Of a stretch of 36,321 bases of DNA, positions 2,715-28,578 are shown piece by piece (position 1 is the first letter of the stretch; each line of letters opens with the position of its first letter). Made by a program: the position numbers and the translations under genes. Source of the stretch: an uncultured Clostridia bacterium (GTDB taxonomy: Bacteria > Bacillota_I > Bacilli_A > RF39 > UBA660); contig CAMNBS010000002.1 of assembly GCA_946533175.1 (NCBI GenBank), forward strand, positions 1-36,321, read 5' to 3'. The notes below the pieces were generated by a model, which was not told the origin of the DNA, did not search any database, and saw only the letters and a program-made list of their open reading frames with translations.

Positions 2715-2721
2715 AAAATAA

Positions 2722-13039: not shown

Positions 13040-13214
13040 GATATTATGTTGCTATATGTCCAGGAAACTATATTATAAACTTTGATGTTGCAATAATTAA
13101 TCCCTAATAAATGAATTAAAATTTGACGGAATTGTACTAAATTTCGTCTTTTTTATGCTATAATTAGATAGAAATGGAGTGATTCCTATGAATAATAAAA
13201 CTAATATTAACTGG
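13040..13214 (+). repeat. rbgA upstream/5'-end module, copy A
   Basis: Hairpin terminator GACGGAATT-N6-AATTTCGTC + T-run (13125-13154). Extended -10 TGCTATAAT (13156-13164). RBS GGAGTGAT. ATG 13188 encodes MNNKTNINWWY* (to 13223). Core AAAACTAATATTAACTGG at 13197-13214. Visibly homologous along its length to copies B and E. Confidence 0.85.
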
Positions 13215-13492
13215 TGGTATTGATTTATCTAACCTCTTTAATAAATCATTATAAAATAAGGGAAATTTAAAAAATGGATCTTGCATATTTAATATAAAAA
13301 ATAATTAAAAATGTACAAAAAACACCAAAAATTATTAAAAATGGTGCTTTTTTCATACATTTTTAATTAGGTGATGTTTTCAGCTAACCCCATTGAAAAA
13401 TAAAGAAATTATTCATTCAAAACAAATAGGAAAATAAAGAAAAATATAGTATAATATAAGTAGTTGATAAATCATGGTAAAGGGGGAATTAT

Positions 13493-14368
13493 ATGAATGA
13501 TAAATTAACAACTATTACAAATCTTTTTGAAGGAAAAGAAATAAGAAGTGTATGGGATTCTGAAAAAGAAGAATATTATTTTAGTGTAGTAGATGTGATT
13601 AATGCTTTAGCAGAACCTAAGGATGCAAGCGATTACTGGACAACCTTAAAACGAAGAATGATTAAAGAAGAAAAAAGTGAGATTCCGACAAATTGTCGGG
13701 AACTGAAAATGAAATCTTCTAAAGATGGTAAAATGTATAAAACTGATACTCTTGATACTGAAGGAATATTTAGATTGATTGAATCTGTTCCATCTAGTAA
13801 AGCTGAGCCTTTTAAGATGTGGTTAGCCTCCTTAGGAAAAGAAAGAATAGATGAGGTATTTGATCCAGAAATAGCAGTTAATAGGGCTGTAGAATATTAT
13901 CGTAAAAGAGGTTATGATGATAAATGGATTAAATCAAGACTAACTGGAATAGTTGATAGATTTAAATTAACTGATGTTTGGAAAGAATCAGGGATTACAA
14001 AAGACTATGAGTATGGAATTTTAACTAATGAAATTTATAAATCATGGTCAGGAATGAAAGCAAGTGAGTATAAAGCATATAAAGGTCTTAGAAAAGAATC
14101 TTTAAGAGATAATATGACAGATATTGAAGTAGCATTAACTGACTTAGGAGAAATAGCAACAAGAGAACTTGCTAAAGAACATAAACCATTTGGATTAGAA
14201 CAAAATAAAAGAATAGCGCAACGTGGAGGAAATATAGCTAAAATAACTAGAGATAATTTAGAAAAAGAGTTAGGTAGAACTGTCATCAGCAATAAGAATT
14301 CGTTAAATTATGAATATATAGATGAAAAATTATTAGAAGATAAAAAAGAGGTTGTAAGTAATGAATAA
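13493..14368 (+). CDS. Bro-N domain protein (phage/ICE antirepressor-like, DinD-like architecture)
   Basis: RBS AAGGGGG. N-terminus ITNLFEGKEIRSVWDSEKEEYYFSVVDVINAL matches the Bro-N pattern. The helical C-terminal half is as in Bro/KilA-type proteins of Firmicutes mobile elements. Confidence 0.7.
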   Translation: MNDKLTTITNLFEGKEIRSVWDSEKEEYYFSVVDVINALAEPKDASDYWTTLKRRMIKEEKSEIPTNCRELKMKSSKDGKMYKTDTLDTEGIFRLIESVPSSKAEPFKMWLASLGKERIDEVFDPEIAVNRAVEYYRKRGYDDKWIKSRLTGIVDRFKLTDVWKESGITKDYEYGILTNEIYKSWSGMKASEYKAYKGLRKESLRDNMTDIEVALTDLGEIATRELAKEHKPFGLEQNKRIAQRGGNIAKITRDNLEKELGRTVISNKNSLNYEYIDEKLLEDKKEVVSNE

Positions 14369-14415
14369 GTATAATATTAATGAATTAAGAGAACAAATTG
14401 GATAGATGTAAAAAT

Positions 14416-14628
14416 ATGGATTTAAAAGATGTTAGTCTTGATGATGTTGATGAAATATCTTCTATAAAAATTGATAAGAGAAAATCTAGTAATGAAAGAA
14501 TTTTAGATTTTTTGTCTAAAACTAAAAATCCATATATATTTAAGGTTAATAATAGATTAGTTAAAATCAGTTTTTCTGATAATAATAGAACAGGTGATGA
14601 TGCATTAACTAGTGTACTTAAGAATTAA
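14416..14628 (+). CDS. small DUF6870-like protein (typical cargo of Firmicutes integrative/conjugative elements), possibly frameshifted at its 5' end
   Basis: KNPYIFKVNNRLVKISFSD motif. No RBS before ATG 14416. A 14-codon ORF (14361-14405, MNKYNINELREQIG*) in another frame looks like the displaced original N-terminus. Confidence 0.4.
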   Translation: MDLKDVSLDDVDEISSIKIDKRKSSNERILDFLSKTKNPYIFKVNNRLVKISFSDNNRTGDDALTSVLKN

Positions 14629-14788
14629 TATAGATAAGGATGTAATGAGTAAAAATGAACTAAAAACACCTAAAATCATTAAAATAGGGACTTTTTTTTA
14701 TATTTTTGATGAGGTGATGTTTTCAACTAACCCCACCATAAAATAAGAGATTATGATAATTAAAATTATTTTAGAATAAAGTGATTTT

Positions 14789-14817
14789 TTGACACAATTG
14801 TTGGAAAGTGTTATAAT
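14789..14817 (+). promoter_or_regulatory. sigma-A promoter of the T-box/valS unit
   Basis: TTGACA (14789-14794), 17-nt spacer, TGTTATAAT with TATAAT at 14812-14817. Confidence 0.65.
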
Positions 14818-14829
14818 TTTTTCGTATTC

Positions 14830-15057
14830 AAAAAACGAGGAACAAGAGGAGTAGAATAGTTAGTAGCTATTAGGAATGAAAGGTCACCGACTGAAAGCCT
14901 TTCTTAGTGAAGAGTATTTGAAGGTAGCTTGGGAGTTGTATATCTGAAATAGTAGTAAGATATAATGTTAGTCGCATTAAGACTTCAAGGTAATAGAAAT
15001 ATTACAAATTAAGGTGGTACCACGAGCAATTCGTCCTTTATGGATGAGTTGCTTTTT
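14830..15057 (+). promoter_or_regulatory. T-box riboswitch leader, specifier most likely GUA (Val)
   Basis: Stem I with AGTA/GAA loop-E elements. Specifier loop TTGAAG-GTA-G, then CTTG pairing with CAAG (14843-14846). T-box sequence AATTAAGGTGGTACCACG at 15007-15024. Terminator GCAATTCGTCC-N5-GGATGAGTTGC + T6 (15025-15057), mutually exclusive with the antiterminator. Confidence 0.8.
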
Positions 15058-15165
15058 TAATTATTTAGGAGATGATTAATATGAAATTTATTTTTAAAGG
15101 TGATTATGTACGAGTCTAATTATTTTAATCGATTATAATTTTTAAAATAAGAAGGAGAGATTAAA

Positions 15166-17583
15166 ATGTTAGATAAAAAATATAATGCAAATGAAAAAGA
15201 AAATAAATGGTTAAATTATTGGAAAGATAATGGAATATATGATTTCAAACCAGATTACAGAGAAGTATATTCAATAGATACTCCTCCTCCAACAGTTAAT
15301 GGTAAGATTCATATAGGACATATATTTTCATATACGCAAACAGAAATGATTGCTAGATATAAAAGATTAAGTGGGTATAATGTATTCTATCCATTTGGTT
15401 TTGATGATAATGGATTACCTTCAGAAAGATTAGTTGAAAAAGAACAAGGTAAGAAAGCTCATGAAATTGGAAGAGAAGAATTTTCTAAATTATGTCATGA
15501 AACAACTGATAAATATGAAAGTGAATTTCAAGAATTGTTTAGTAAAATGGGTGTAAGTACTGATTGGAAATATCATTATAAAACAGTTAGTCCATCAACT
15601 ATTAAGATAAGTCAAAAATCATTCTTAGATTTAATTGATAAAGGACATTGTTATCATAAAGAATCACCAGCATTATGGTGCAATGAATGTTTAACTTCAA
15701 TAGCACAAGCTGAACTTGAAACAAAAACAATAAAAACAACATTTAACTATATTAATTTTAAAACTAAAGAAGATGGTGAAGAGTTTACTATAGCTACAAC
15801 AAGGCCCGAATTGTTACCAGCTATTGTATGTGTATTTGTAAATCCAAGTGATGAAGCACACAAGTCTTTAATTGGAAAAACTGCCCATATTCCAGTAATA
15901 GATGTTGAAGTTCCTATTATGGCAGATGAGAAGGTTGCTATCGATAAAGGTACCGGAGTAGTTATGTGTTGTACTTTCGGAGATCAAACAGATATTGAAT
16001 GGTGGAAGAAGTATAATTTACCACTTAAATATATATTTACTGATGATGGTAAAATTATTGATTCAGTTCCTAACTATGGTGGAATGAAAATCAAAGAAGC
16101 AAGAAAACAAATAATTGAAGACTTACAAGCTGGTGGTTATGTAGTTAAGATTGAAGAATTAGAGCATGAAGTTCAAACACATGAAAGATGTGGTAAAGAA
16201 GTTGAATATGCAGTTATGAAACAATGGTTTATTGATATCATGAATCATAAACAAGATTTCATTAAAATTGGTAATGAAATCAAATGGTATCCAGAACATA
16301 TGCATAATAGATATAATGAATGGGTTGAAAATGTTTTATGGGATTGGTGTATATCAAGACAAAGATATTTTGGCGTTCCATTCCCAGTTTGGTATTGCAA
16401 AAATTGTGGAGAACCAATTTTTGCAAATGAGAAAGATTTACCAGTTAATCCATTAATAGATAAATCTAAGAATGATAAATGTCCAAAATGTGGATGTACT
16501 GAATTTATTCCAGAAACAGATGTAATGGATACTTGGGCAACTTCTTCAGTAACACCATTAATTAATATGAGATATGGTGAAGAAGATAATTTTGAATCAA
16601 TTTTAAAACCAATGAGTTTAAGAACTAATGCTTCTGAAATTATTAGAACATGGGACTTTTATACAATAGTTAAGAGTTTCTATCATTTTGGAACTAGACC
16701 TTGGGATAATGTAATGATATCAGGATTTGTTATGGCTAACAAAGGAGAAAAAATAAGTAAGTCTAAAGGTAATAGTAAAGTAGATCCAATGGATCTTATT
16801 AATGAGTATTCAGCTGATGTATTAAGATATTGGGCTGGTACTGGAAGATTAGGTACCGATATCGTATTTAGTGATGAAACATTATTAAGAGGTAAGAAGT
16901 TAGTTAATAAGATTTGGAATGTTTCTAAATTTATTGAAATGCATTTACAAGATTATGAAGATAAAGAATTTAATGATTTTGAATATATTGATAAATGGAT
17001 ACTTGGTAAATATCAAGAAATGGAAAGAGGGTTCATTAAATATTTAGATGATTATGAAGTAGGATTAGCATTAAACTTACTCGAAAAGTTCTTCTGGAAC
17101 TTCTGTGATAATTATATTGAAATTGTTAAACATAGACTATATAGACCTGAAGAATTTGGAGATACTCCAAGATACTCAGGGCAAAAAACAGTTTATACTA
17201 TTCTTTATAAATTATTACAAGACTTTAGTATTTACTTCCCATATATAACTGAAGAAATTTATCAAGAATTATATCACGATAATAAATCAATTCATATAAC
17301 AGAAATTAAACCATTAAATTATAGTTTTGATAATGAAATTAAATGTGGTGATTTAATAATAGATATTATCAGTCAAGCTAGAGGAGAAAAATCAAATAAT
17401 AATTTATCTTTAAAGACACCAATTAAGAATTTAGATTTAAGTTTAAATAGTGAACTTAAAGAAGCAATTAATAAATCTATTAAAGATATTAAAGCAACAT
17501 TATTTATTAAGAATTTAAATATAAATGATATTGATAAAGATTATACTATAGATAAAATTGAGTTGGATTTAAGTGAAGAATAG
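15166..17583 (+). CDS. valS: valine--tRNA ligase, short (type-2, archaeal/actinobacterial-like) form
   Basis: RBS GAAGGAGAG. TPPPTVNGKIHIGHIFSYT (HIGH), FGFDDNGLPSE, CP1 editing region, KISKSKGN (KMSKS). 805 aa with no long C-terminal coiled coil. Confidence 0.8.
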   Translation: MLDKKYNANEKENKWLNYWKDNGIYDFKPDYREVYSIDTPPPTVNGKIHIGHIFSYTQTEMIARYKRLSGYNVFYPFGFDDNGLPSERLVEKEQGKKAHEIGREEFSKLCHETTDKYESEFQELFSKMGVSTDWKYHYKTVSPSTIKISQKSFLDLIDKGHCYHKESPALWCNECLTSIAQAELETKTIKTTFNYINFKTKEDGEEFTIATTRPELLPAIVCVFVNPSDEAHKSLIGKTAHIPVIDVEVPIMADEKVAIDKGTGVVMCCTFGDQTDIEWWKKYNLPLKYIFTDDGKIIDSVPNYGGMKIKEARKQIIEDLQAGGYVVKIEELEHEVQTHERCGKEVEYAVMKQWFIDIMNHKQDFIKIGNEIKWYPEHMHNRYNEWVENVLWDWCISRQRYFGVPFPVWYCKNCGEPIFANEKDLPVNPLIDKSKNDKCPKCGCTEFIPETDVMDTWATSSVTPLINMRYGEEDNFESILKPMSLRTNASEIIRTWDFYTIVKSFYHFGTRPWDNVMISGFVMANKGEKISKSKGNSKVDPMDLINEYSADVLRYWAGTGRLGTDIVFSDETLLRGKKLVNKIWNVSKFIEMHLQDYEDKEFNDFEYIDKWILGKYQEMERGFIKYLDDYEVGLALNLLEKFFWNFCDNYIEIVKHRLYRPEEFGDTPRYSGQKTVYTILYKLLQDFSIYFPYITEEIYQELYHDNKSIHITEIKPLNYSFDNEIKCGDLIIDIISQARGEKSNNNLSLKTPIKNLDLSLNSELKEAINKSIKDIKATLFIKNLNINDIDKDYTIDKIELDLSEE

Positions 17584-17618
17584 AATGGTCAGAATATTGA
17601 TTTGTTGCAAACTTACAA

Positions 17619-17642
17619 GTAGGAGAAATCCTACTTTTTTGA
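17619..17642 (+). terminator. intrinsic terminator after valS
   Basis: AGTAGGA-GAAA-TCCTACT followed by T6. Confidence 0.7.
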
Positions 17643-17906
17643 TATAATAATGGGAAGTATCATTTCTTTTATCGATATGGTATTAGTGATAATGGTGAAA
17701 AAACACTTAGCAATTTAGAAATTGCAAAGCTCGATGATATAGTTAGAATAAATCATATTGATAAATGGAATGGATATAATTCTCAAAACAAAGAAACTCC
17801 TAATGATGGGTTTATAATTCATATTGAATATATGGATGGAAAAAAGACAACATTTGATATTTATATTAGAAGAGATAAATATACAATAAAAGAAAAGAAT
17901 AATTAA
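17643..17906 (+). pseudogene. startless 3' gene fragment (unknown family)
   Basis: 87-codon open frame (..YRYGISDNGEKTLSNLEIAKLDDIVRINHIDKWNGYNSQNKETPNDGFIIHIEYMDGKKTTFDIYIRRDKYTIKEKNN*). It begins right after a TGA and has no start codon or RBS. Confidence 0.3.
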
Positions 17907-17918
17907 TCGCACTATTAT

Positions 17919-18095
17919 GATATTACGATTGATCATATGACCAGGAAATTATAATAAAACATTTGATGTTACAACATCTAACCCAACTTAAATAAATTAA
18001 AAATTGACGGAATTATACTAAATTTCGTCTTTTTTATGCTATAATTGATTAGAAACGGAGTGATTCCTATGGATAATAAAACTAATATAAACTGG
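17919..18095 (+). repeat. rbgA upstream/5'-end module, copy B
   Basis: Terminator hairpin 18006-18035. TGCTATAAT with TATAAT at 18040-18045. RBS GGAGTGAT. ATG 18069 encodes MDNKTNINWLRTI* (to 18110). Core AAAACTAATATAAACTGG at 18078-18095. Confidence 0.85.
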
Positions 18096-18295
18096 TTGAG
18101 AACAATTTAGTCAAGATCGACTCCAAAACCTTATAAAATAAGTGAAAAACAAAAAATAAATCATACATGTTTTATAATAAAATATATTAAAATAGATAAA
18201 AAATAATAAAAATTAAGTGATTTTAAGTAAAAATAGCTTAGGAATTGACATGGTGAGAACAGGTAGTCAAGACCAGATGAAAGAAGATGATAATT

Positions 18296-19052
18296 ATGGC
18301 AAATAATTTAGTAATTAGAAGCAGTAGTGCAGAATTTTTGATATTTGAAAGACAAACCCATGATAAGGGAATTCAAGTTAGATTTGAAAATGGAGATTTA
18401 TGGTTAACTCAAAAAGCTATGAGTGAATTATATGATTGTACAGCAGACAATGTTTCATTACATTTAAAAAATATATACAAAGACTATGAACTTTACAAAA
18501 ACTCAACTACCGAGGAATTCTCGGTAGTTCAAAAAGAAGGTAACAGAGAAGTAAGCGGTGGATTATGATTCAAAGGCACCAACAACAATTAAATTTTTTA
18601 AAAAAGTACAAAACAAAATGCATTATACTGTATCTCATCAAACTGCAGCTGAAATAATATATAATCGTGCTGATTCAAAAAAAGATAATATGGGGCTTAC
18701 CTCATGGAAGAATTCTCCTAATGGAAAAATTTTAGAAACTGATGTTGTAATTGCTAAAAATTATTTATCTAAAAATGAATTAGAAAGTTTAGAAAGAATA
18801 GTTTCGGCATTTTTAGATTTAGCAGAGAATAGGGCAAAGAGAAATATTCCAATGACAATGGAAGATTGGGCGACAAGAATTGATAAATATTTACTTGCTG
18901 ATGATTTAGATATATTAAAAGATGCTGGTAAAATATCTCATGAAATAGCGTGCGACAAAGCATTAACTGAATTTGAAAAATATAGAGTAAAACAAGATAA
19001 ATTATATAAATCAGATTTTGATTTATTAATGGAAGAAAGTGAAAAAATATGA
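18296..19052 (+). pseudogene. RhuM-family (virulence RhuM / Fic-associated) gene, split by internal deletion and frameshift
   Basis: The N-part (to 18568) has RFENGDLWLTQKAMSELYDCTADNVSLHLKNIY and FSVVQKEGNREV. The C-part (18558-19052) has FFKKVQNKMHYTVSHQTAAEIIY. Together about 250 aa in two frames, with the central segment of intact RhuM proteins missing. Confidence 0.65.
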
Positions 19053-19402: not shown

Positions 19403-19464
19403 AATGAAAGAAGAAAAAGTGTCTTTAAACAAGCTAAAGATATTGAACAAATTATGAATAAATT

Positions 19465-19508
19465 AGGGAGGTAATACTCATGGATGAAAATAAAACTAAT
19501 ATAAACTG
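19465..19508 (+). repeat. rbgA 5'-end module, copy C (short)
   Basis: RBS GGGAGG. ATG 19480 encodes MDENKTNINCLVWI* (to 19524). Core AAAACTAATATAAACTG at 19492-19508. No terminator or -10 part. Confidence 0.75.
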
Positions 19509-19717
19509 TTTGGTATGGATTTAGTCAAACATTTTTATAAAACCCTATAAAATCAAGGGAAAATGAATGTTTACTTATTACATTTTTTTATTAAAAAAAG
19601 TAAAAAAAAACTAAAATTTGATAAAATTCGGTAAAAATCATCCAAAAATAGCAATATTTAAAAAGGGTGGTATTGACGGTCTAACTTTTAGAAAAAAGAG
19701 TGTTTTTATATAAATTT

Positions 19718-19744
19718 GTCAGATAGTTATATCTGACTTTTTTT
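19718..19744 (+). terminator. strong hairpin + T7 just upstream of the ParB-like gene
   Basis: GTCAGATA-GTTA-TATCTGAC followed by TTTTTTT. The context CTTTTTTTATGC resembles the terminator/-10 junction of the rbgA modules. Confidence 0.6.
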
Positions 19745-19766
19745 ATGCAAAAATTTAGGAGGATTT

Positions 19767-20141: not shown

Positions 20142-20223
20142 GATAAAAGAAAAGATGAAATATTAGGAGAGCAAGTTGGAGAAAGTAGAGAGCAAATAAG
20201 AAGATTTAGAAAATAATAATATA

Positions 20224-20790
20224 AGACCAGAAAGTTTAGATGAATATATTGGCCAAAGTGAAGTAAAAGAAAACATTAAAGTATTTATAGAAGCTGCAAA
20301 GCTTAGAAATGAACCACTTGATCATGTACTTTTATATGGTCCACCAGGACTTGGTAAAACAACTTTAGCAAATATAATAGCAAATGAATTAGGTGTTTCT
20401 TTAAAAACAGCATCGGGTCCTGCTATAGAAAAATCTGGCGATTTGGCAGCAATATTATCAACATTAGAACCAGGTGATGTATTATTTATTGATGAAATAC
20501 ATAGAATGCCAAGATTTATTGAAGAAATACTTTATCCTGCTATGGTAGATTTTACTTTAGATATAGTAGTTGGAAATGATACAAATACAAGAAGTATTAA
20601 AATTGATTTGCCTCCATTTACTTTAGTTGGAGCTACAACAAGAGCAGGTGATTTGACAAGTCCACTTCGTGATAGATTTGGTATTACTTGTAAATTAAAA
20701 TATTATGATGAAGATGAACTTCGTATGATTATTGAAAGAACAAGTCGTGTTCTTGATATGCCTATTTCTCATGAAGCAGCGATTTCACTT
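20224..20790 (+). pseudogene. ruvB: ruvB fragment (about residues 20-215 of Holliday junction helicase RuvB)
   Basis: [57 protein letters not shown]...[30 protein letters not shown]...[14 protein letters not shown]......[29 protein letters not shown]. The C-terminal third is absent. Boundaries approximate. Confidence 0.8.
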
Positions 20791-21694
20791 GCTAATTTAT
20801 TAAAACAAAAAGATTATAGTATAAAAGCTTTTCATATGAATTCTAAAGAATATTTTTCAAGAGGAATTAATTATTCTAATTGGGGATATGATAATTATTT
20901 TGGACTTCAGGATTTAGGAATATATTCTGATACATCATATCAGTTGGATAGAGAACTTATTCTTAATGAAACATTCTACAATGAAATGTTTAATAATAAT
21001 GGAAAATTTATGAATTACATTATTACTTATAGTAATCATTTACCTTTTGATGCTAAAAGAGGAGTATGTAATAAATTATTAAAACTTGATTATGAAAAAG
21101 AACTTTAAAATATTGATAATAGTGAAAAAAATGTATTTCTAGAGAGTTTAGAATTAACAGAAGAAGATTGTATTAAGAGACAAGCAAAAGAGACTGATTA
21201 TATGATATGGTTATTAATAAAAGCATTAAAAGATAATAATTTATATGATAATACAATAATTATTGCTTATGCTGATCATTATTTATATACTGTATCTGAT
21301 TATGAAATACTAAAAAAATGGTAAGAGTATAGAAACTAATTTAATTAATCATACACCATTCTTTATATGGAGTAAAAATTTAAAAAAGGAAGAAGTAAAA
21401 AAAGTTACAACACAAATGAATATTTTACCAACTGTTTTAAATTTACTTGGAATAGAATATAATGAAAAATGGTATATAGGGCAAGATATATTTTCAAAAA
21501 AAATTAAACCATTTGTAGTATTCCCTGATTTATCTTGGTATGATGGAAGTTATTATGTAGAAGATGGTAGTGTTGTTAATAATAAGAAAATATCTTCTGA
21601 ACTTTTAGAAGAAAAAAATAATTATGCTGAATATTTAATTAAAAAGAATGATTTAGTACTTAAATATAATTATTTTAAAGAAATGAGTAATTAA
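20791..21694 (+). pseudogene. LtaS-type sulfatase-domain gene, 5'-truncated, with an in-frame stop and a frameshift
   Basis: Fused in frame to the ruvB fragment at about 20785-20795 ([17 protein letters not shown]...ITYSNHLPF). TAA at 21106. Continues ..LYDNTIIIAYADHY.. to a frameshift in the A7 run near 21314. Then ..NHTPFFIWS...QMNILPTVLNLLGIEYN.. to 21694. Confidence 0.7.
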
Positions 21695-21775
21695 AAGACT
21701 TTGTTATAGGTAAAAAAAAGTCTTTCTTTTTGTGCGAATGTAATATATAATTATAATAGGTAGGAGGAGTGTTAA

Positions 21776-24568
21776 ATGATGGATGCAACTAAAAAAAGAA
21801 AATTAATAGTAAGTATTTTAGGAATAGTGGGAGTATTAAGTATTACACTAGGTGTTACTGTAGCATTCTTTAATTATACAAGAACAGGAAATGCTAATAC
21901 AATAAGTGTAGGAAGAATAGCTTTTAATTCAACTCAAGATGGAAGAATAAATTTAACAAATATATTTCCAATAGATAGTGAAGATATTGATAATGCTTTA
22001 GAAGAAGGAAATAACGTAACAATTAATATTAATGGGGATACAACATATCAATATGGAATAGAATATTTAGTTACAGCAGAAGATGTTAACATTACTGTTA
22101 ATAATAAAAAGGTACCATTAAATCTATATATAACAAGTACAACTGATTTAGGTAATAATGATCCTGATTATTTTGATAATCGTGGTGGAAATATGTCAAT
22201 GCATAAAGTTTTATCGGGAGGAGTTGTAGTAGATGGACAATATTTAGTTGTTGGTTATATTGCACCAGGACAAGAGGGAATAGAAGGAAATTTAAATATA
22301 AAGGCATATATTGATAAAGATAAAATAGCAATAACAGATACACCGGAAGAAAATATAGAATGGCAAAGAGGTAGAACTATATTTACAACGGAAGAATGGA
22401 ATAGTATTCAACAAGAAGGTCATGAATTATCCTTTAAAATAAGAGTAGAAGCGAATGAAGGAGTTTGGGTAGATCCATATACAACACCAAATTTAATGAA
22501 TAATATTAATATAAATAAAAGTGCAGTAAATATAAAAGAAATAAGGTTTATAGAAGAAACACCACTTAGAATGCAAAGAAGGTATGATGCTTCTGTTGGT
22601 GAAGAAAGTAATGGAACAAAAGCTGATTTAACATATCAAGATACTGGAAAAGTACTTGCATGGATAGAGCCGATGGAAGTAACCCCAACAGGAACAAGTA
22701 ATGAATTATTAAATATCAAACCAAAGTTTTTAGTTAATGAAGACACATCAAATAATCTTAAACAAATAGATAATGAACCTGCATATATATTATATATAGC
22801 AAGTAGTGGTAAGACAAAGTGGGTAACAGGCAATTCTTTATTTAAAGAATTCACAAGTGTGGAAAAAATCATATTTGAAAATGTTGATTCATCAAGTGTT
22901 ACTAGTATGTATGATATGTTTAATAATTGTAACAAGTTAAGAAGTATAATTGGATTAAATACATTAGATACAAGTAATGTTACAGATATGCAATATATGT
23001 TTTCAGGTTGTAGTAGCTTGACAAGTATTGATTTATCAGGATTAGGAAGCAATAATTTAAATGCTATAGGTTATATGTTTTATAATTGCAATGCTCTAAC
23101 TGAAATAATAATGAAAAATTTTAATTTTGGTCAAGTTAATTTTTATAATAATAGTAATTATTATTATGCATTTGCATATCTTCCAAATGTGGAAACAATA
23201 GATTTAACAAATGCCAATACTAGTGGTGTTACTAGCATGTATGATATGTTTTATAGTTGCACAAAATTAAAAAATATCATCGGTTTAAATACATTAGATA
23301 TAAGTAATGTTACAGATATGCGGTATATGTTTGCATATAGCGAAATAGAAAGTATTAATTTAAGTGGAATGAATATGAGTAGTGTAACTACTGTATATGA
23401 CATGTTTTACAGTTGTAAATCATTAGCATTAGTTAAGATAAATAACGCTAATTTACAAAATGTAACAGATATGCAATATATGTTCTCTGACTGTGATGCG
23501 CTTGTAAGTATTGATTTAAATAATTTAAATATTAATAGTGTACAAACAATGAATAGCATGTTTAGTGGATGTGATAATTTGGAAAGTGTTATATTTACTG
23601 GAATAGAAACAACAACATTAAGGGATATGTCAAATATGTTTTCTGGTTGTACGAAATTAATAAATGTAAATTTATCAGGATTAGGAGGAAACAATTTATA
23701 TAGTGTTGGTTATATGTTTTATAATTGTACTAGTTTAAAAAATATAAATATGTCTAATTTTAATTTTGGTGGAATTAATTCATTTGATGGTTCTTCAAGT
23801 ATTTTTTACCCATTAAAAGGTGTATTGGAAAGTATTAATTTAAGTGGAGCAAATTTTAGTGGACCTAATATATCATCTAGTAGTTTTTATGCAATGTTTC
23901 AATATTTTTCAAAATTAAAGACTGTTGATTTAAGTAATGCAAACACAAGTAAAGTAACAAGTATGCAAGACCTATTTGGTCATTGTCCATTATTAGAAAA
24001 TGTTAATTTAGCTGGAATCGATACGAGTAATGTGACAAACATGCAGTATATGTTTGATAATTGTGATTCTATAACAAAACTAGATTTAAAACATTTAAAT
24101 ACAAGTAAAGTAACTAATATGTATTATATGTTTAGATATATGGACAATTTAGAAGAAATTGATATATCTGGGTGGGGAAATAATAGTTTATCTAATACAT
24201 ATGGTATGTTTGCTTCTGATATTAAATTAAAAACTATAATTATGAATAATTTTAACTTTGGAACAAGCGCATATGGGGCATTTTATAGTGCGAGTGGCGT
24301 TGAAGAAGTTTATCTAAGTAATGCTATAACAAACAAAGTGACTGATATGAGTCTTATGTTTGATGGTTGTAGAAACTTAAAAACAATATATGTATCAAAT
24401 ACATGGGATACAACTAAAGTAACGGATTCAGGTAGTATGTTTTCTAATTGTACATCTTTAGTAGGTGGAGCAGGAACTACCTTTAATGCTAGCTATATTG
24501 ACAAAACAAGAGCAATCATTGATGGTGGTACAAGTAATCCCGGTTACTTAACATTAAAGACAAATTAA
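21776..24568 (+). CDS. BspA-family leucine-rich-repeat surface protein (DUF285 / Mycoplasma-type LRR) with TasA-like N-module
   Basis: RBS AGGAGG. TM, then AFFNYTRTGNANTISVGRIAF. More than 15 repeats of the DUF285 pattern (..VT.M..MF..C..L..I.L....T..). C-terminal SLVGGAGTTFNASYIDKTRAIIDGGTSNPGYLT signature. Confidence 0.85.
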   Translation: MMDATKKRKLIVSILGIVGVLSITLGVTVAFFNYTRTGNANTISVGRIAFNSTQDGRINLTNIFPIDSEDIDNALEEGNNVTININGDTTYQYGIEYLVTAEDVNITVNNKKVPLNLYITSTTDLGNNDPDYFDNRGGNMSMHKVLSGGVVVDGQYLVVGYIAPGQEGIEGNLNIKAYIDKDKIAITDTPEENIEWQRGRTIFTTEEWNSIQQEGHELSFKIRVEANEGVWVDPYTTPNLMNNININKSAVNIKEIRFIEETPLRMQRRYDASVGEESNGTKADLTYQDTGKVLAWIEPMEVTPTGTSNELLNIKPKFLVNEDTSNNLKQIDNEPAYILYIASSGKTKWVTGNSLFKEFTSVEKIIFENVDSSSVTSMYDMFNNCNKLRSIIGLNTLDTSNVTDMQYMFSGCSSLTSIDLSGLGSNNLNAIGYMFYNCNALTEIIMKNFNFGQVNFYNNSNYYYAFAYLPNVETIDLTNANTSGVTSMYDMFYSCTKLKNIIGLNTLDISNVTDMRYMFAYSEIESINLSGMNMSSVTTVYDMFYSCKSLALVKINNANLQNVTDMQYMFSDCDALVSIDLNNLNINSVQTMNSMFSGCDNLESVIFTGIETTTLRDMSNMFSGCTKLINVNLSGLGGNNLYSVGYMFYNCTSLKNINMSNFNFGGINSFDGSSSIFYPLKGVLESINLSGANFSGPNISSSSFYAMFQYFSKLKTVDLSNANTSKVTSMQDLFGHCPLLENVNLAGIDTSNVTNMQYMFDNCDSITKLDLKHLNTSKVTNMYYMFRYMDNLEEIDISGWGNNSLSNTYGMFASDIKLKTIIMNNFNFGTSAYGAFYSASGVEEVYLSNAITNKVTDMSLMFDGCRNLKTIYVSNTWDTTKVTDSGSMFSNCTSLVGGAGTTFNASYIDKTRAIIDGGTSNPGYLTLKTN

Positions 24569-24649
24569 AAAAATTGTGTATAATAAACACAATTTTTTTA
24601 TATCTTTTTTTCTCTATTATATTATCATTAGTATGAAAGGGATTGTAGT

Positions 24650-26083
24650 ATGAGTAGTTTTTTTAATTCTCTAATTAAAACTATTGGTAGTTGGTATAAT
24701 AGTGGTTCTAGTATTCTATGGTGGGTATACCATATACTTGCCATTTTAGGTATATATAAAACTTTTTATTTAATAATTGGTATCTTTTTTACAAGAATAT
24801 TTCCTAAAGCTAAAAATAATCATAAATATGCTATTGTAATTGCAACAAGAAATGAAGAAAAAGTTATTGGAAATTTATTGGATAGTATTAATAAACAAGA
24901 TTATCCAAAAGATTTAATTACTACTTTTGTCATTTGTGATAATTGTACTGATAATACAAAAAAGGTTAGTGAAAAGCATGGTGCTATATGTTATAAAAGA
25001 CATGATTTAAAGAATAAAACAAAGGGGTTTGCTTTAAAATATTTATTTGAGTGTATAGAGCGTGACTATAAAATTAATAGTTTCGAAGGATACTTTGTTT
25101 TTGATGCTGGTGAAAAGATAATTACATCATATCGTAATACTAAAAATTTTGATGAGAATTGGATTGCATCAACTTACGCAATTCATTGGCTTAGAAGCAT
25201 TAGAACAGCGCATCGTGCTAGAAGTATTTTAAGACTTGCTACTAATATTCAAGGAACTGGTTTTTTATTTAGTAATGAACTTGTAAAAAATGGTTGGAAA
25301 TATACTTCATTAACAGAAGATAGAGCATTTACTGTTGATGCTGTTAAAGAGGGATACCATATTTCTTATAATGATAAAGCTATGTTTTATGATGAACAAC
25401 CTGTTAATTTGAAAATAGCATTACGCCAGCGTCTTCTTTGGTCTAATGGTCATTTACAGGCATTCATTGAAACAGGACTAGGTTTATTTAAAAATATTTT
25501 TTTTGGTAAGATGTTTCGTAAAAATAAACAAAATGTTAAAAGTGGTTTTTTATTAAAAATAATCGAATCAATACGACATCGTTTTGCATCGTTTGATATA
25601 TTAATGCTTATGCTACCAAGTAGTGTTATTTATTTTCTTTTATGGTTTATCTTTTCATGTTTATTATATAGTAATAATGCCTATATCGTTGGTATTAATG
25701 GTGTTAATATTTTCCAGGGTGGAACAATACTAGCAGGTTTACTTCGAAGTATAACAGATATATATGTTTATGTAAGTCCAGGTATTGAATCTTTGTTTAT
25801 GGGATTTATTTTAACAATATGGTTACGTATTTTTTATTTAATAGGAAGATATATTGAAAATATGTGGATGGCTATTTATATTTTCTTTGTTGAACATAAA
25901 AGAATAAAAAAGAATGATTCATGGATTGAGCATTTTAAAAGAAATAAAAAAATAAAAAAAATAACCAAAGAAGTTTTGCAAGAATTAATTGATGTTATTT
26001 ATATAACAAACGAAGGTAATGTAGAAATTACATTTAAATATAAAAATTTATATGAAGATGCTCTGAGGTATCTAAATAATTAA
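24650..26083 (+). CDS. family-2 glycosyltransferase (membrane, processive-type), probably inactive, with a chimeric 3' end derived from a large serine recombinase
   Basis: GT2 motifs YAIVIATRNEE, FVICDNCTD, TSYRN.KNF, GTGF, LTEDR and the Q(R)RLLW-type motif QRLLWSNG. The expected FDAD(N) DxD reads FDAGEKIITSYRN, suggesting an in-frame deletion of about 20 aa. The last ~55 aa resemble a DUF4368-type recombinase tail. Confidence 0.6.
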   Translation: MSSFFNSLIKTIGSWYNSGSSILWWVYHILAILGIYKTFYLIIGIFFTRIFPKAKNNHKYAIVIATRNEEKVIGNLLDSINKQDYPKDLITTFVICDNCTDNTKKVSEKHGAICYKRHDLKNKTKGFALKYLFECIERDYKINSFEGYFVFDAGEKIITSYRNTKNFDENWIASTYAIHWLRSIRTAHRARSILRLATNIQGTGFLFSNELVKNGWKYTSLTEDRAFTVDAVKEGYHISYNDKAMFYDEQPVNLKIALRQRLLWSNGHLQAFIETGLGLFKNIFFGKMFRKNKQNVKSGFLLKIIESIRHRFASFDILMLMLPSSVIYFLLWFIFSCLLYSNNAYIVGINGVNIFQGGTILAGLLRSITDIYVYVSPGIESLFMGFILTIWLRIFYLIGRYIENMWMAIYIFFVEHKRIKKNDSWIEHFKRNKKIKKITKEVLQELIDVIYITNEGNVEITFKYKNLYEDALRYLNN

Positions 26084-26090
26084 AATTTTG

Positions 26091-26187
26091 TGTTATAATT
26101 GATAAGTAAAGTTTCTTACAAAAAGGAGTGATTCTTATGAGTAATACAAATGGAAATGCTGGGCTAGACAAAACCAATATCAACTGG
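26091..26187 (+). repeat. rbgA 5'-end module, copy D
   Basis: TGTTATAAT with TATAAT at 26094-26099. RBS AAAGGAGTGAT. ATG 26137 encodes MSNTNGNAGLDKTNINWLITVYSNFWRNPLFIRTCED* (to 26250). Core AAAACCAATATCAACTGG at 26170-26187. Confidence 0.8.
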
Positions 26188-26385
26188 TTGATTACAGTTT
26201 ATAGTAACTTTTGGAGAAATCCTTTATTTATAAGAACTTGCGAAGATTAATGTCTTACATGCTTACAATAAAAAATATTAAAAATTAATAAAAAATAGTC
26301 AAAAATGACTAAAATATCCTAAAAATAGCGTAGGAATTAAAGTATTGATTACGGGACAGTAACTCACAGTAAAAGAGGTGAAATT

Positions 26386-26724
26386 ATGAAACATGAAATG
26401 AAATTAAATAATGGACCATACACAAATATAAAAAATGGTACAAAAACAATTGAGTTAAGATTAAATGATGAAAAGAGACAATTATTAAAGATAAAAGATT
26501 TAATTGAATTTACTAATAGAGAAACTTTAGAACAAATGTTAGTTGAAATTGAAAATTTATATCATTATCCATCTTTTGAAGAACTGTATAAACATTTTGA
26601 TAAGGTGGCTATGGGATATAAAAATAACGAAATTGCTAATCCAAAAGATATGGAAGAATACTATTCAAAAGATGAACAAGAAAAATATGGTGTATTAGGA
26701 ATAGAGATAAAAAAAATAAAATAG
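26386..26724 (+). CDS. ASCH (PUA-like) domain protein
   Basis: RBS AGAGGTG. MKLNNGPYTNIKNGTKTIELRLNDEKRQLLKIKDLIEF...YHYPSFEELY...YYSKDEQEKYGVLGIEI matches the small stand-alone ASCH family pattern. Confidence 0.6.
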   Translation: MKHEMKLNNGPYTNIKNGTKTIELRLNDEKRQLLKIKDLIEFTNRETLEQMLVEIENLYHYPSFEELYKHFDKVAMGYKNNEIANPKDMEEYYSKDEQEKYGVLGIEIKKIK

Positions 26725-26774
26725 TAAGTACAGTTTTAATACTATAATTATGTATTGATTTAAAGGAGGTTTTG

Positions 26775-27554
26775 ATGATGATATTTTTAAGTCATAATTA
26801 TAAAGATAAGGATATAGTCGAACCAATTGCTATAAAATTGAAAGAAATATATGGTCAAGAAAATATTTTTTATGATTCTTGGTCAATTAAACCAGGTGAA
26901 AGTATAATTGGAAAAATGGATGAAGGCCTTTCCAAGTGTAAATGGTTTTTCTTCTTTATTAGTAATAATTCATTAAATAGTTCTATGGTGGGGTTGGAAT
27001 GGCAAAGTGCTTTATATAAAGCCACAAAAGAAGGAATAAAATTTGTACCAATAAAAATTGATGATTGTTTTCCGCCACAAATATTGACTAATACTTTATA
27101 TTTGGATATGTATGTGGATGGTTTTGATAACACTTTAAGAAACATGTTTGACTTGATTGATAATAATGATACCAAAGAATATAATAAAAAATTTAATAAC
27201 TTGTTATGTAGTATCGAAAGAATCAATAATAAAGAATTAAAAATAAAGATTGAGGTTTTAAAATTAATTGAACCAAATCCAAGCTTTGCTTTTGCTTTTA
27301 GTAATAGTTTAGATGATGTTTCCATAGAATTAACATCTGATTCTATGTCTATGAATAGTTCTGGAACATTTTCAAACGGTAAAAATCTTAAATTGTGTAG
27401 GATTAGTAGGGTACTTACTAAGGGATTCCCGTATGAAGTAATTTTAAAAAGTAAAGTTGGTTTTAAAAATAATGATTTGGAAATATGGCATCAAGTTGGA
27501 AAAAACGATTTTGTTTTGCTAACTAATATAAACGAGTATAGTTCAATAAACTAG
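26775..27554 (+). CDS. TIR-domain protein with an uncharacterised beta-rich C-terminal domain
   Basis: RBS AAGGAGG at 26763-26769. IFLSHNYKDKDIVEPIAIKL...IFYDSWSIKPGESI...CKWFFFFISNNSLNSSMVGLEWQSAL is the TIR_2 pattern, including the conserved Glu. The ~130-aa C-terminal half has no motif I recognise. Confidence 0.75.
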   Translation: MMIFLSHNYKDKDIVEPIAIKLKEIYGQENIFYDSWSIKPGESIIGKMDEGLSKCKWFFFFISNNSLNSSMVGLEWQSALYKATKEGIKFVPIKIDDCFPPQILTNTLYLDMYVDGFDNTLRNMFDLIDNNDTKEYNKKFNNLLCSIERINNKELKIKIEVLKLIEPNPSFAFAFSNSLDDVSIELTSDSMSMNSSGTFSNGKNLKLCRISRVLTKGFPYEVILKSKVGFKNNDLEIWHQVGKNDFVLLTNINEYSSIN

Positions 27555-27563
27555 TTTATTCTA

Positions 27564-27756
27564 CATTAGAATGAGATATTATAGCCATATGACCTGGAAA
27601 CTATAGACTAAATTTGATTACGGTTTTTAGTAACCATTAAAATGACTTAAAAATGGACGAAAATATACTAAATTTCGTCTTTTTTATGGTATAATTTTAT
27701 TGATTTATATGAAAGGAGTGATCCAAATGAACGAAAATAAAACTAATATAAACTGG
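27564..27756 (+). promoter_or_regulatory. rbgA upstream/5'-end module, copy E (the functional one): terminator, extended -10 promoter, RBS, start
   Basis: Hairpin GACGAAA..TTTCGTC + T-run (27656-27685). TGGTATAAT with TATAAT at 27690-27695. RBS GGAGTGAT. ATG 27727. Core AAAACTAATATAAACTGG at 27739-27756. Confidence 0.8.
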
Positions 27757-28578
27757 TATCCTGGCCATATGGCTAAGACCAAGAGAGAAATTAAAGAAAA
27801 GTTGGCATTAATTGACATAGTATATGAAATAATTGATTCACGAATGCCAAAGTCAAGTAGAATTATAGATTTAGATGAATTGATTAATGATAAACCAAGA
27901 ATAATGATTTTTACGAAATATGATTTATGTGATAAAAGTATTACTGATAAATATGTTAATGAATATCAAAAAAAATATATTGTTATAAAAACTAATTTAA
28001 AAGAAAATAGTAATATTAATAAATTAATTCTTGATAAAACAGAAGAAATATTAAAAAGCATTAATGAAAAAAGATTGGAAAAAGGACTTAATAAAAGAAA
28101 TTATAGAGCTTTAGTAATTGGAGTTCCTAATGTTGGTAAAAGCACTTTAATTAATCGTTTAGCAGAACGTAATGTTGCTAAAACGGGTAATGTAGCTGGA
28201 GTTACTAAAAACTTGTCATGGATAAAGCTTAATAAGAATATAGAACTTTTGGATACACCAGGTATATTGTGGCCAAAAATAGAAGATGAAATAGTTGGTT
28301 TAAATCTTGCTTCTTTATCAAGTATTAAAGAAGAAATTTTAAATAAAGAGGATATATCAATGTATATAATTAGGACATTATATAATTATTATCCAAAGTT
28401 ATTATTAGATAAATATAAAATAGATAATATTGATGATTTTAATATTGTTTTTGATAGTATTGGAAAAAGAAGAGGTTGTCTTGAAAAAGGTGGTGTTGTA
28501 AATTTGGATAAAGTTTATACCATTATTATAAATGACTTAAAAGAAGGTAAGATTGGTAAAATAACCTTTGATAGATAA
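27727..28578 (+). CDS. rbgA: ribosome biogenesis GTPase A (YlqF/RbgA)
   Basis: INWYPGHMAKTKREIKEKL..ID.V.EI.DSRMP.SSR, circularly permuted G motifs (TKYDL then GVPNVGKSTLIN, DTPG). ATG 27727 preferred over the ORF-track start at 27700. Confidence 0.92.
   Translation: MNENKTNINWYPGHMAKTKREIKEKLALIDIVYEIIDSRMPKSSRIIDLDELINDKPRIMIFTKYDLCDKSITDKYVNEYQKKYIVIKTNLKENSNINKLILDKTEEILKSINEKRLEKGLNKRNYRALVIGVPNVGKSTLINRLAERNVAKTGNVAGVTKNLSWIKLNKNIELLDTPGILWPKIEDEIVGLNLASLSSIKEEILNKEDISMYIIRTLYNYYPKLLLDKYKIDNIDDFNIVFDSIGKRRGCLEKGGVVNLDKVYTIIINDLKEGKIGKITFDR

Follow-up and report, generated by a model that had tools for sequence, protein, structure and literature searches.

Four gene cassettes, none with a recombinase gene, are stacked after codon 8 of the essential gene rbgA in the window (the entire stretch of 36,321 nucleotides analysed), and each carries its own version of a repeated half-site. 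The best explanation, to which a probability of about one half is given, is that X1, the copy at the junction, is a P' half-site mimicking the rbgA B' arm, that X2 and X3 are accessory half-site copies comparable to those of res sites, and that the lineage of the large serine recombinase (LSR) that has to read each cassette explains the co-variation of its copies.

Junctions and half-site copies in the rbgA array

The features of the array are as follows (distances from X1 to X2 are register distances; p values refer to shuffled sequences).

13051-13068, + strand: GCTATATGTCCAGGAAAC, the S1 of long right-end module A; it copies the rbgA B' arm in inverted, degenerate form (reverse complement of TCCTGGCCATATGGC in rbgA) and is followed by a 13-nt spacer and X3
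13081-13104, + strand: half-site copy of X3 type, TTTGATGTTGCAATAATTAATCCC, at the array's left edge, GATGTT...TAA(C/T)CC class as in cassette 1 X2/X3
13125-13164, + strand: within the long right-end module, terminator hairpin (13125-13148) with T-run and, after it, extended -10 TGCTATAAT
13188-13213, + strand: junction 1, left (P/B) arm, ATG and 8 codons, core AAAACTAATATTAAC, conserved TG at the end
13212-13234, + strand: X1 of cassette 1, TGGTGGTATTGATTTATCTAACC, putative drifted P' half-site
13235-13368, no strand assigned: spacer of cassette 1 with palindromic motif TTATAAAATAAGG, ATCTTGCAT motif and phased A-tracts
13369-13391, + strand: X2 of cassette 1, AGGTGATGTTTTCAGCTAACCCC, distance 154 bp (13212 to 13369), class shared with X2 of LSR element L136
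14644-14734, + strand: partial second module, located upstream of a T-box leader and aaRS gene and including its own X2 copy (14712-14734)
17932-17984, + strand: right end of cassette 1, S1 (17932-17949), 13-nt spacer, X3 (17962-17984) TTTGATGTTACAACATCTAACCC
18069-18094, + strand: junction 2, left arm ATGGATAATAAAACTAATATAAAC-TG
18093-18118, + strand: X1 of cassette 2, TGGTTGAGAACAATTTAGTCAAGATC, rank 0.000 against other-class modules
18252-18274, + strand: X2 of cassette 2, GGTGAGAACAGGTAGTCAAGACC, distance 157 bp (18093 to 18252), TAGGAATT just before it, p=0.002
19507-19530, + strand: X1 of cassette 3, TGTTTGGTATGGATTTAGTCAAAC, 98% identical to L023_8951
19666-19685, + strand: X2 of cassette 3, GGTGGTATTGACGGTCTAAC, distance 157 bp (19507 to 19666), weak alone (p=0.29)
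25826-26038, + strand: probable LSR C-terminus remnant (weak), immediately preceding junction 4 and fused onto the end of ORF 24650-26083
26170-26209, + strand: junction 4 and X1 of cassette 4, degenerate core AAAACCAATATCAAC, TG, X1 TGGTTGATTACAGTTTATAGTAACT
26344-26365, + strand: X2 of cassette 4, ATTGATTACGGGACAGTAACTC, distance 157 bp (26185 to 26344), p=0.012
27584-27635, + strand: right end of cassette 4, S1 (27584-27601) GCCATATGACCTGGAAAC, 12-nt spacer, X3 (27613-27635) TTTGATTACGGTTTTTAGTAACC
27727-27780, + strand: rbgA start, left arm ATGAACGAAAATAAAACTAATATAAAC, TG, genuine B' arm GTATCCTGGCCATATGGCTAAGACC

Every repeat copy listed in the original prediction was found in its place, and the recurrence in the same orientation, predicted at about 151-157 bp, was measured from X1 to X2 at 154-157 bp. 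The proposed likeness of the copies to the rbgA sequence right of the core is also real (GACTTATGGAAAAC against rbgA GACATATGGCAAAAAC; GTCAAGACC against GCTAAGACC), but the degenerate core thought to stand ahead of X2 is weak, and a class-independent sequence, AAAAAT(A/T)GC(A/T)TAGGAATT, precedes X2 instead. Against shuffled sequences, the X2 copies of cassettes 2 and 4 were significant individually, but those of cassettes 1 (p=0.14) and 3 were not; X1 has drifted in these latter two cassettes. The copy at 14712 sits in a partial module (14644-14746) that duplicates 13300-13403 with 76-81% identity.

All cassettes share the junction layout (SD-ATG-first 8 rbgA codons)-TG-X1, in which comparative data place the crossover within an imperfect palindrome centred on the conserved TG. 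Every element brings its own left arm (P = B), made up of a ribosome-binding site plus ATG and the first 8 codons, and thus keeps rbgA intact; the right arm is formed by X1 within the array and otherwise by the rbgA sequence itself (B'). Reverse-complemented left arms mirror the X1 classes, with 9 of 11 positions matching across the junction in CTTCGATTAAC-TG-GGTAATGGAAG and an exact mirror of GTTGATTACGG in the left arm AAAACCGTAATCAAC-TG of L060/L039. For some elements, the junction taken as the left one may in fact be that of a neighbouring cassette fused to them.

X3 is a same-orientation copy of X1 located 132-144 bp upstream of the next junction in cassettes with a long right end; in the window this distance is 132 bp (17962 to 18093) and 143 bp (27613 to 27754). 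The two window copies differed from shuffles (p=0.011 and p=0.002, the latter for cassette 4, with a class rank of 0.0), and in 9 of 12 cases X3 was of the class of the cassette carrying it. S1 and X3 form a head-to-head pair; the spacer between them varies in sequence but measures 12-13 nt at 14 of the 18 sites. The terminator and extended -10 unit of module A recurs at 18006 and 27656.

The position of the array recalls tyrosine recombinases. Insertion of Tn5253 at the rbgA 5' end creates a duplication of as much as 84 bp, in which the first 20 coding nt are included (PMC8571831; PMC4701971). The copies might then be arm-type sites for a tyrosine integrase like Int of Tn5252/Tn5253, whose target in streptococcal rbgA is this very position, or sites of host Xer recombinases, in line with the resemblance of the core to a XerD arm (TAATATAAACT against TTATGTAAACT) and with a xerC-like gene 4-7 kb downstream in 12 loci. 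This is very improbable: a motif screen detected no tyrosine integrase in any array, its only matches being housekeeping XerC in conserved synteny; the bases flanking the TG vary between junctions, so that no overlap of 6-8 bp is shared; and the dif-like appearance of S1 is not seen in other loci. In addition, the extra sites copy the core half-site, with no separate arm motif. The prediction of arm sites for a recombinase or accessory protein is partly supported, the recombinase being an LSR in place of a lambda-type tyrosine integrase.

Conservation of the module in related loci

The layout of the window cassettes recurs in about 79 related modules of other MAGs, which were identified through an independent landmark. 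In 45 of these 79, the match downstream of a module's own X1 beat at least 95% of the comparisons with other-class modules (median 0.02), and the four X2 sites of the window fall in homologous alignment columns of the family. The X1-X2 distance is held to three steps, 112-114, 145-147 and 156-158 bp (113, 146 and 157), and X2 is absent from some classes such as GGTGATACGGATTTAAG... The steps of about 11 bp could in part be a by-product of slippage in the periodic spacer. Identity within classes is 0.86-0.97 for X1, 0.83-0.95 for X2 (0.90 in class A, to which X2 of cassette 2 belongs) and 0.65-0.72 for the spacer. In four classes X2 is conserved about as well as X1 and above its flanks, with a variable middle between two conserved blocks; as judged from this sequence conservation, X2 is under purifying selection.

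X2 and X3 might instead be decaying pseudo-sites left by an ancestral tandem att duplication (S1, junction, S2), kept alike by descent and occasional gene conversion and now without function. Cassettes lacking the module are common to different species (L010/L013, 92.7% identical) and, together with the X2-less classes, show that X2 is dispensable for spread; hybrids of X1 and X2 are known (L061_1331 and window cassette 1), and in another, L045_7582, X1 is joined to X2 inside a shared TTGATTA, as expected of homology-driven deletion. Decay is nevertheless unlikely, given the conservation of X2 in two blocks, the matching of X1 with X2 in more than 10 classes although repeats promote deletion, and the fixed spacing classes and S1 spacer length among varying sequences.

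A further reading, in which X2 and X3 are nested ends, that is, alternative crossover sites by which the recombinase gains, loses or swaps the 5' module or promoter module, is quite improbable. It is consistent with the TG that precedes X2 in the correct register in class A (GGAATTGATA-TG-GTGAGAAC), with the existence of variants without a module and with the reassortment of modules and genes (L003_8013 against L058_2487). The breakpoint between module and gene, however, is right of X2 and not at the TG on its left, many X2 copies have no TG in register, the joint of L045_7582 fits homology-driven deletion, and cleavage would require a half-site spacer about 10 bp shorter than that in S1.

The spacer between X1 and X2 consists of A-tract DNA of low complexity, in which the periodicity of AAA peaks at 10.5-10.75 bp (z about 35), and is predicted to be intrinsically bent. 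Its motifs ATCTTGCAT and TAGGAATT are conserved independently of class. The shared spacer motif of the original prediction is kept as TTATAAAATAAG in nearly all modules, but a hairpin is unsupported by covariation. A guide-like RNA, also proposed for this interval, would act in the manner of bridge or omega RNA, its X2 segment pairing with X1 DNA to program recombination. Direct repeats of about 22 nt, cassette-specific and about 150 nt apart, would suit such an RNA, and one L045 cassette carries an IS110-family transposase gene, but on the opposite strand and in this locus alone. RNAalifold gave zero consensus pairs over 33 modules and Rfam no match to the module; without a conserved RNA fold, and with phased A-tract DNA as the spacer, the proposal is unsupported. 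X1 and X2 also differ consistently within classes (GATATTGA against GGTATTGA) and the associated LSR reads DNA directly, making a guide RNA extremely improbable.

The repression loop of gal is 113 bp, and on this model X1 and X2 might be operators, at which the recombinase or another DNA-binding protein loops the bent spacer of 113-157 bp and represses or times the cassette gene, with recombination not being the target. X2 lies 20-30 nt upstream of the ribosome-binding site of the cassette gene, the class-independent spacer motifs are conserved, and phasing and bending fit loop formation. On the other hand, a scan of two window modules detected no convincing forward promoter between X1 and X2, X3 and S1 are at cassette right ends distant from any cassette promoter, and a class-specific operator requires a class-specific protein, for which the LSR is the only candidate seen. 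Little probability is thus given to gene regulation as the role of these sites.

Association with large serine recombinases

No intact recombinase is present within the window; the probable remnant before junction 4 gave weak matches to LSRs (tblastn, residues 338-404, E=0.001; hmmsearch, E=7e-4). In at least 19 related loci an LSR gene (Resolvase, Recombinase and Zn_ribbon_recom domains) ends 175 nt or less from the rbgA TGG junction, and in many more within 2.5 kb. Complete LSR elements of 2-4 kb have the same junctions at their ends, carry X1-spacer-X2 and encode the LSR at the right end. These LSRs are short, 397-412 aa, ending about 20 residues past the part that aligns to residues 15-385 of the 545-aa SprA, and from their sequences seem to be without the coiled-coil that other LSRs use for directionality. 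The test suggested in the original prediction, that site class should follow recombinase clade, gave agreement, with X1 similarity tracking LSR identity (Mantel r=0.42, p=0.0006, n=20). The tracking is loose, since L003, L085 and L086 have LSRs 91-96% identical beside different X1 variants.

Comparative data point to movement of related elements by the LSR that they encode at the right end. Under the preferred reading of X2 and X3 as accessory sites, X1 would be the P' half-site of the att site of this LSR, imitating the rbgA B' arm, and X2 and X3 further copies of this half-site, X2 being placed 113, 146 or 157 bp inside the cassette across the bent, A-tract-phased spacer. X2 and X3, for which occupancy by the LSR is inferred, may bind additional, non-cutting recombinase subunits that touch the dimer at the crossover site via a small pre-bent loop, as at accessory subsites II and III of res, and these contacts would tune or direct recombination by the short LSR. 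Cassettes without an LSR would retain the sites of the lineage mobilising them in trans. All sites of one cassette would fit the DNA-binding specificity of one LSR lineage, and hence co-vary within and differ between cassettes. Quantised spacing, phased A-tracts, selection on X2, the class of X3 and clade tracking altogether argue for the functional architecture first proposed.

Relation to known recombination systems

As in the LSR integrative elements phiC31, Bxb1, A118, SPbeta (SprA) and Tn4451 (TnpX), the enzyme combines Resolvase, Recombinase and zinc-ribbon domains, its gene is at the element end adjoining the junction, att is an imperfect palindrome with a 2-bp centre, and the target is a conserved gene. 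Unlike in these elements, the left arms of attP and attB are identical at rbgA, so that integrated junctions again resemble attP and attB; the module-linked recombinases are short (about 400 aa), the att region contains extra phased half-site copies, and most units are single-gene cassettes without a recombinase. To our knowledge, characterised LSRs need no accessory sites.

The res sites of Tn3/gamma-delta resolvase and Sin likewise combine a crossover site with accessory subsites of the same half-site motif at non-catalytic spacing, with bent DNA between them and all subsites co-varying with the recombinase. The res subsites, however, are clustered within some 120 bp and are bound by a small resolvase, whereas at rbgA 113-157 bp of intrinsically curved DNA separate the candidate accessory sites, the recombinase is an LSR, and X2 is apparently a lone half-site with no recognisable inverted partner.

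SCC and composite islands at staphylococcal rlmH (orfX) also use serine recombinases (Ccr), accrete in tandem at one end of a conserved gene and include pseudo-SCC units without a recombinase, thought to be mobilised in trans. SCC units are large and occupy the 3' end of the target, and internal phased half-site copies are not described there, whereas the units at rbgA measure 0.5-7 kb and each of them reconstitutes an essential gene's promoter or start. The Tn5253/Tn5252-type ICEs share the target position, directly behind the region of the conserved Trp codon at the rbgA 5' end, and restore the gene start, but are large and conjugative, use a tyrosine integrase and have long direct repeats of identical sequence.

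Integrons (IntI, attI, attC) resemble the rbgA arrays in accumulating mostly single-gene cassettes at one site, each with a recombination site of conserved architecture and variable sequence, of which the two ends co-vary. The integron enzyme, however, is a tyrosine recombinase acting on folded single-stranded attC hairpins, and its co-varying ends are therefore inverted repeats, whereas at rbgA they are direct repeats, some of the cassettes carry the serine recombinase, and the 5' end of rbgA provides the platform. As the original prediction anticipated, no matching att-site organisation was found in the literature searched. The rbgA arrays apparently represent an undescribed integron-like cassette system, driven by serine recombinases, in uncultured gut bacteria.

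Repeated putative half-sites in the cassettes upstream of rbgA

Four inserts were identified between the ABC-transporter gene and rbgA. At each junction, a ribosome-binding site and an ATG are followed by about eight codons including the core AAAACTAATATAAAC, then by TG, and then by either the genuine rbgA sequence (B') or X1, a cassette-specific putative half-site of about 22 nt on the right of TG. Copies of X1 in the same orientation lie within the cassette (X2) or at its right end (X3).

Borders, junctions and repeat distances in the window
11336-13021, ABC-transporter gene, left border of the insert region
27727-28578, rbgA, right border of the insert region
13212, 18093, 19507, 26185 and 27754, junctions, the last being rbgA itself
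13212 to 13369, X1 to X2 of cassette 1, 154 bp
18093 to 18252, X1 to X2 of cassette 2, 157 bp
19507 to 19666, X1 to X2 of cassette 3, 157 bp
26185 to 26344, X1 to X2 of cassette 4, 157 bp
17962 to 18093, X3 to the next junction, 132 bp
27613 to 27754, X3 to the next junction, 143 bp

The original prediction held that cassette-specific copies of an rbgA-like half-site recur at a spacing of about 155 bp, and every copy that it listed was found in its place; the copy at 14712 forms part of a second, partial module (14644-14746). In shuffle controls, the X1-X2 pairs of cassette 2 (p=0.002) and cassette 4 (p=0.012) and the X3 copies (p=0.011 and 0.002) stood out from the background, but the pairs of cassette 1 (p=0.14) and cassette 3 (p=0.29) did not.

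No recombinase was detected in the window by Pfam. The cassette cargo recognized by Pfam and Rfam includes DUF6870, a Bro-N protein and a class-I aminoacyl-tRNA synthetase under T-box control; a glyoxalase and a broken RhuM gene; fragments of ParB-N, RuvB and sulfatase, together with a glycosyltransferase and a DUF285 repeat protein; and ASCH and TIR proteins.

T-box and synthetase of cassette 1
14829-15041, T-box leader ahead of the synthetase (Rfam, 105 bits)
15166-17583, class-I aminoacyl-tRNA synthetase of 805 aa, Ile/Leu/Val type

This synthetase is an extra mobile copy, and possibly an antibiotic-insensitive paralogue. The RhuM-family gene (18287-19052) is divided into two ORFs through internal deletion or frameshift and is thus a pseudogene; intact RhuM genes, with different modules, are carried by cassettes of five related loci from other MAGs (L007, L048, L073, L098 and L101). 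At 20200-21700, an RuvB P-loop fragment fused to sulfatase-family fragments and several short ORFs represent decayed cargo of cassette 3, and at 21776-24568 lies the gene for a 930-aa DUF285/leucine-rich-repeat protein, likely a surface protein, with internal repeats spaced 78-81 nt and multiples thereof. The ASCH-domain protein and the 260-aa TIR-domain protein of cassette 4 (26386-27554) may serve in anti-phage defence. A phage origin was rejected, a scan of viral contigs having given chance matches only, in unrelated coding regions.

The module and the right ends in related loci

By a search with RbgA, 80 loci were collected from MAGs of uncultured Bacilli, Erysipelotrichaceae-like bacteria and 'Tenericutes', and the same layout was found in dozens of cassettes across these loci. 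A total of 79 modules, that is, the X1-spacer-X2 stretch at the 5' end of a cassette, were picked via an independent landmark. For 45 modules, the match between X1 and the region downstream of it exceeded at least 95% of the comparisons with other classes of X sequence (median rank, 0.02), as judged by an identity-exclusion test; single-linkage classing chained the classes together. The X2 copies of the window align in columns homologous to X2 of the relatives. Based on these two results, the repeat copies are confirmed as real and general.

The order after X1 is CCTTATAAAATAAGG, a ATCTTGCAT motif, an A-rich spacer, TAGGAATT, X2 and the ribosome-binding site of the cassette gene. The spacer motif that had been noted as shared between cassettes is the conserved palindromic motif CCTTATAAAATAAGG. 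A hairpin at this motif was rejected, because pair counts were not above those of shuffled sequences and covariation gave no support. The A-tracts of the spacer are phased at 10.5-10.75 bp (z of about 35 against shuffles), and the spacer DNA should be intrinsically curved, as predicted from this sequence. X1-X2 distances take discrete values of 112-114 (n=15), 145-147 and 156-158 (n=23), with one case at 191, in steps of about 11 bp or multiples thereof. Within four classes the mean pairwise identity was 0.86-0.97 for X1, 0.83-0.95 for X2, and 0.65-0.72 for the spacer. Conservation of X2 is restricted to two blocks around a variable middle of 3-5 nt, and X2 looks like a lone half-site.

A target-site duplication made by a small insertion was rejected as the source of the repeats. 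The module is homologous across more than 10 classes, and X1 contains a conserved ATTTA middle that is absent from X2; a single ancient module whose ends co-evolve is the better fit. The original prediction had also offered a guide-like RNA transcribed from a module promoter as an alternative to recombinase-related architecture. By RNAalifold, zero consensus pairs were found across 33 modules, and Rfam matched only the T-box, which argues against a guide or bridge RNA of the IS110 bridge RNA or IS605 omega RNA type. Near modules, DEDD/TnpB-type proteins are represented by a single IS110 copy, located in L045 on the opposite strand. Here an IS110-family transposase gene (1959-3278, minus strand; DEDD_Tnp_IS110 and Transposase_20) lies within a 6.6-kb cassette and appears to be an unrelated IS insertion. 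A consensus scan of the forward strand of two window modules detected no promoter inside the module. The module is a DNA-level architecture with no structured RNA. The original prediction was supported in part, in that a functional DNA architecture related to a recombinase stood and the guide RNA did not.

Module-less cassettes, in which X1 is joined directly to what is otherwise found after X2, are common to different species, and one class is without X2. Since such cassettes occur across species, X2 is not needed for spread.

The right end is simple in most cassettes, consisting of an extended Shine-Dalgarno sequence followed by ATG and the core. The long right-end modules contain, in order, an 18-nt inverted rbgA copy, a spacer, X3, a terminator hairpin, an extended -10 element (TGCTATAAT), a ribosome-binding site and ATG. 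The inverted copy (GCCATATGRCCAGGANAC), a degenerate version of the B' arm referred to as S1, corresponds to rbgA codons 10-16.

Long right ends in the window
13051-13214, 17932-18094 and 27584-27755, long right-end modules
13051-13068, 17932-17949 and 27584-27601, inverted 18-nt copies, upstream of the terminator

In other loci the inverted copy is preceded by a conserved TCGCAAGATTAAGATATTACGATT. If transcribed, the copy would be antisense to the start of rbgA mRNA. In nine of 12 cases X3 and the cassette to its left were of one class, and the distance from X3 to the next junction was 132-133 or 142-144 bp. The spacer between the inverted copy and X3 varies in sequence, but 14 of 18 sites have a length of 12-13 nt; at the junction, the gap between the left arm and TTGAT of X1 is just 3 nt. 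S1 and X3 are thus read as a putative head-to-head pair of half-sites, the halves lying about one helical turn further apart than at the junction.

A short serine recombinase associated with the junctions

One cassette of the L003 array encodes a large serine recombinase (LSR) of 406 aa, in which Pfam recognizes Resolvase, Recombinase and Zn_ribbon_recom domains. Relatives were collected with this LSR as the query and then with a profile, an N-terminal serine-recombinase regular expression being too strict. In at least 19 loci the LSR stop codon is no more than 175 nt away from the TGG junction of rbgA, and in many more it is within 2.5 kb. Complete elements of 2-4 kb start on the left with a junction carrying X1-spacer-X2, and on the right their own left arm is joined to rbgA. 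In the window, a weak match to the LSR C-terminus was detected at 25826-26038, just ahead of junction 4, and on account of this remnant cassette 3 probably represents an autonomous element that has decayed. Longer LSR relatives (522-550 aa) are found directly upstream of rbgA in L123, L124, L140-L146 and L148, and five LSR-like ORFs are arranged in tandem at one locus, L102 (9935-18211).

The junctions resemble LSR attachment sites in that an LSR is encoded by the element near the site in relatives and in that an imperfect dyad surrounds a conserved dinucleotide. TG is conserved, but the base before (C/T) and that after (G/T/C) vary. When reverse-complemented, the left arms mirror the X1 classes, with CTTCGATTAAC-TG-GGTAATGGAAG matching at nine of 11 positions, and in L060 and L039 AAAACCGTAATCAAC-TG mirrors GTTGATTACGG exactly. 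X1 also mimics the rbgA arm (GACTTATGGAAAAC versus GACATATGGCAAAAAC; GTCAAGACC versus GCTAAGACC). By comparison between genomes, the same cassettes occupy this site in different species.

The expectation that the site class tracks the recombinase held in part. In a Mantel test of X1 similarity against LSR identity, based on 20 LSR-bearing elements whose left end could be assigned, the correlation was significant (r=0.42, p=0.0006), but it is loose, LSRs of 91-96% identity being found beside different X1 variants. L049 and L129, with LSRs of 96% identity, both belong to the GCTTGT class, and the TTGATnnCGATTTAT class is carried by L139, L025 and L157. The element of L136 has the module class of window cassette 1 and the same MNENKTNIN left arm as in the window.

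Arm sites of a tyrosine integrase were considered as another source of the repeats. No tyrosine integrase was detected in the arrays by a motif screen of about 190 loci and by Pfam on selected ORFs, the matches of the screen being the housekeeping XerC only, in conserved synteny downstream. The core matches the B. subtilis XerD arm at nine of 11 positions and one S1 copy aligns to dif, but the left arm is poor (5/11), S1 spacers vary elsewhere, and the likeness fails in other S1 copies. Given the LSR association, an Xer/dif reading is unnecessary.

Proposed control of recombination and its meaning for rbgA

Comparison shows that an LSR goes with these elements, that the junction is palindromic, that X is present in several copies, that the A-tracts are phased and that the sites are conserved; for the half-site and accessory roles we infer the following. 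X1 would be P', the half-site of the element that corresponds to B', while X2 and the S1/X3 pair may be accessory sites that bind further recombinase subunits. By analogy with subsites II and III of a resolvase res site, the curved spacer would carry these sites to the dimer at the crossover site, and the cassette-specific co-variation would reflect the fitting of all sites of one element to one recombinase lineage.

In other LSRs, a coiled-coil sets the direction of recombination. The LSRs tied to modules are 397-412 aa in length and end about 20 residues past the part aligned to residues 15-385 of SprA (545 aa), apparently leaving no room for a coiled-coil. In addition, attP and attB share one left arm in these elements, so that integrated junctions again resemble attP and attB, and some other restraint on excision is therefore required. 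These two properties make the accessory-site model attractive. As in a res-type arrangement, X2 and X3 match the class of X1, S1 holds an inverted copy of B', and the spacings are fixed, at 113, 146 or 157 bp for X1-X2, at 132-133 or 142-144 bp for X3 to the junction, and at mostly 12-13 nt within S1/X3. Relic duplications, operator loops and nested crossover sites are rival readings of the same repeats. We tentatively propose, with a probability of roughly 30%, that short LSRs lacking a coiled-coil run an integron-like platform at rbgA, in which res-like X2 and S1/X3 sites on curved DNA control recombination, attP/attB-like junctions are regenerated, and cassettes are stacked, excised and exchanged without a separate directionality factor.

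Among known systems, integrons are the closest for arrays of single-gene cassettes, but they employ the IntI tyrosine recombinase and hairpin attC sites with inverted R''/R' boxes, whereas here the motif screen detected no such integrase, the co-varying ends are direct repeats and no consensus fold was found. In lambda-type systems the arm motif is distinct from the core and the tyrosine integrase has an arm-binding domain, while the extra sites here copy the core half-site, and the screen and Pfam on selected ORFs again detected no such integrase. SCC islands are the closest for tandem accretion driven by a serine recombinase with recombinase-less units, and res sites for the multi-subsite layout. 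ICEs of the Tn5253/Tn5252 type use the same position in rbgA (PMC8571831, PMC4701971); they are alike in target position but differ in recombinase, a tyrosine integrase instead of an LSR. In the literature no description was found of serine-recombinase elements at rbgA or of such an att organisation.

The first 8-28 codons of RbgA come from the right end of the last-integrated element.

Element-supplied rbgA starts
27727-27753, window
11775-11825, L085
6470-6555, L104
10003-10040, L060

For this reason the RbgA N-terminus differs among species (MNENKTNIN, MSKEQEEKVFHKTSIN, MDMYQKREMRKNKKMNEDKKSLPSTGIN and MNEEKVFNKTVIN). Many MAG contigs stop 50-450 nt upstream of rbgA (L004, L011, L016, L018, L020, L028, L046 and others), and in these genomes assembly seems to break systematically at the cassette array.

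LSRs are prized for genome engineering, as they are thought to need just two short sites. If the extra half-sites are accessory, such an att-site organisation would, to our knowledge, be known for no other LSR and would suggest how an LSR without a coiled-coil sets direction. Regardless of an accessory role, cassette stacking is widespread in uncultured gut and rumen Bacilli (MAG labels Bacilli, Erysipelotrichaceae and Tenericutes), for which no description was found. The cassette system interrupts MAG assemblies at rbgA, has cargo that is defence-like and resistance-like, and rewrites the promoter and the N-terminus of an essential ribosome-assembly GTPase.
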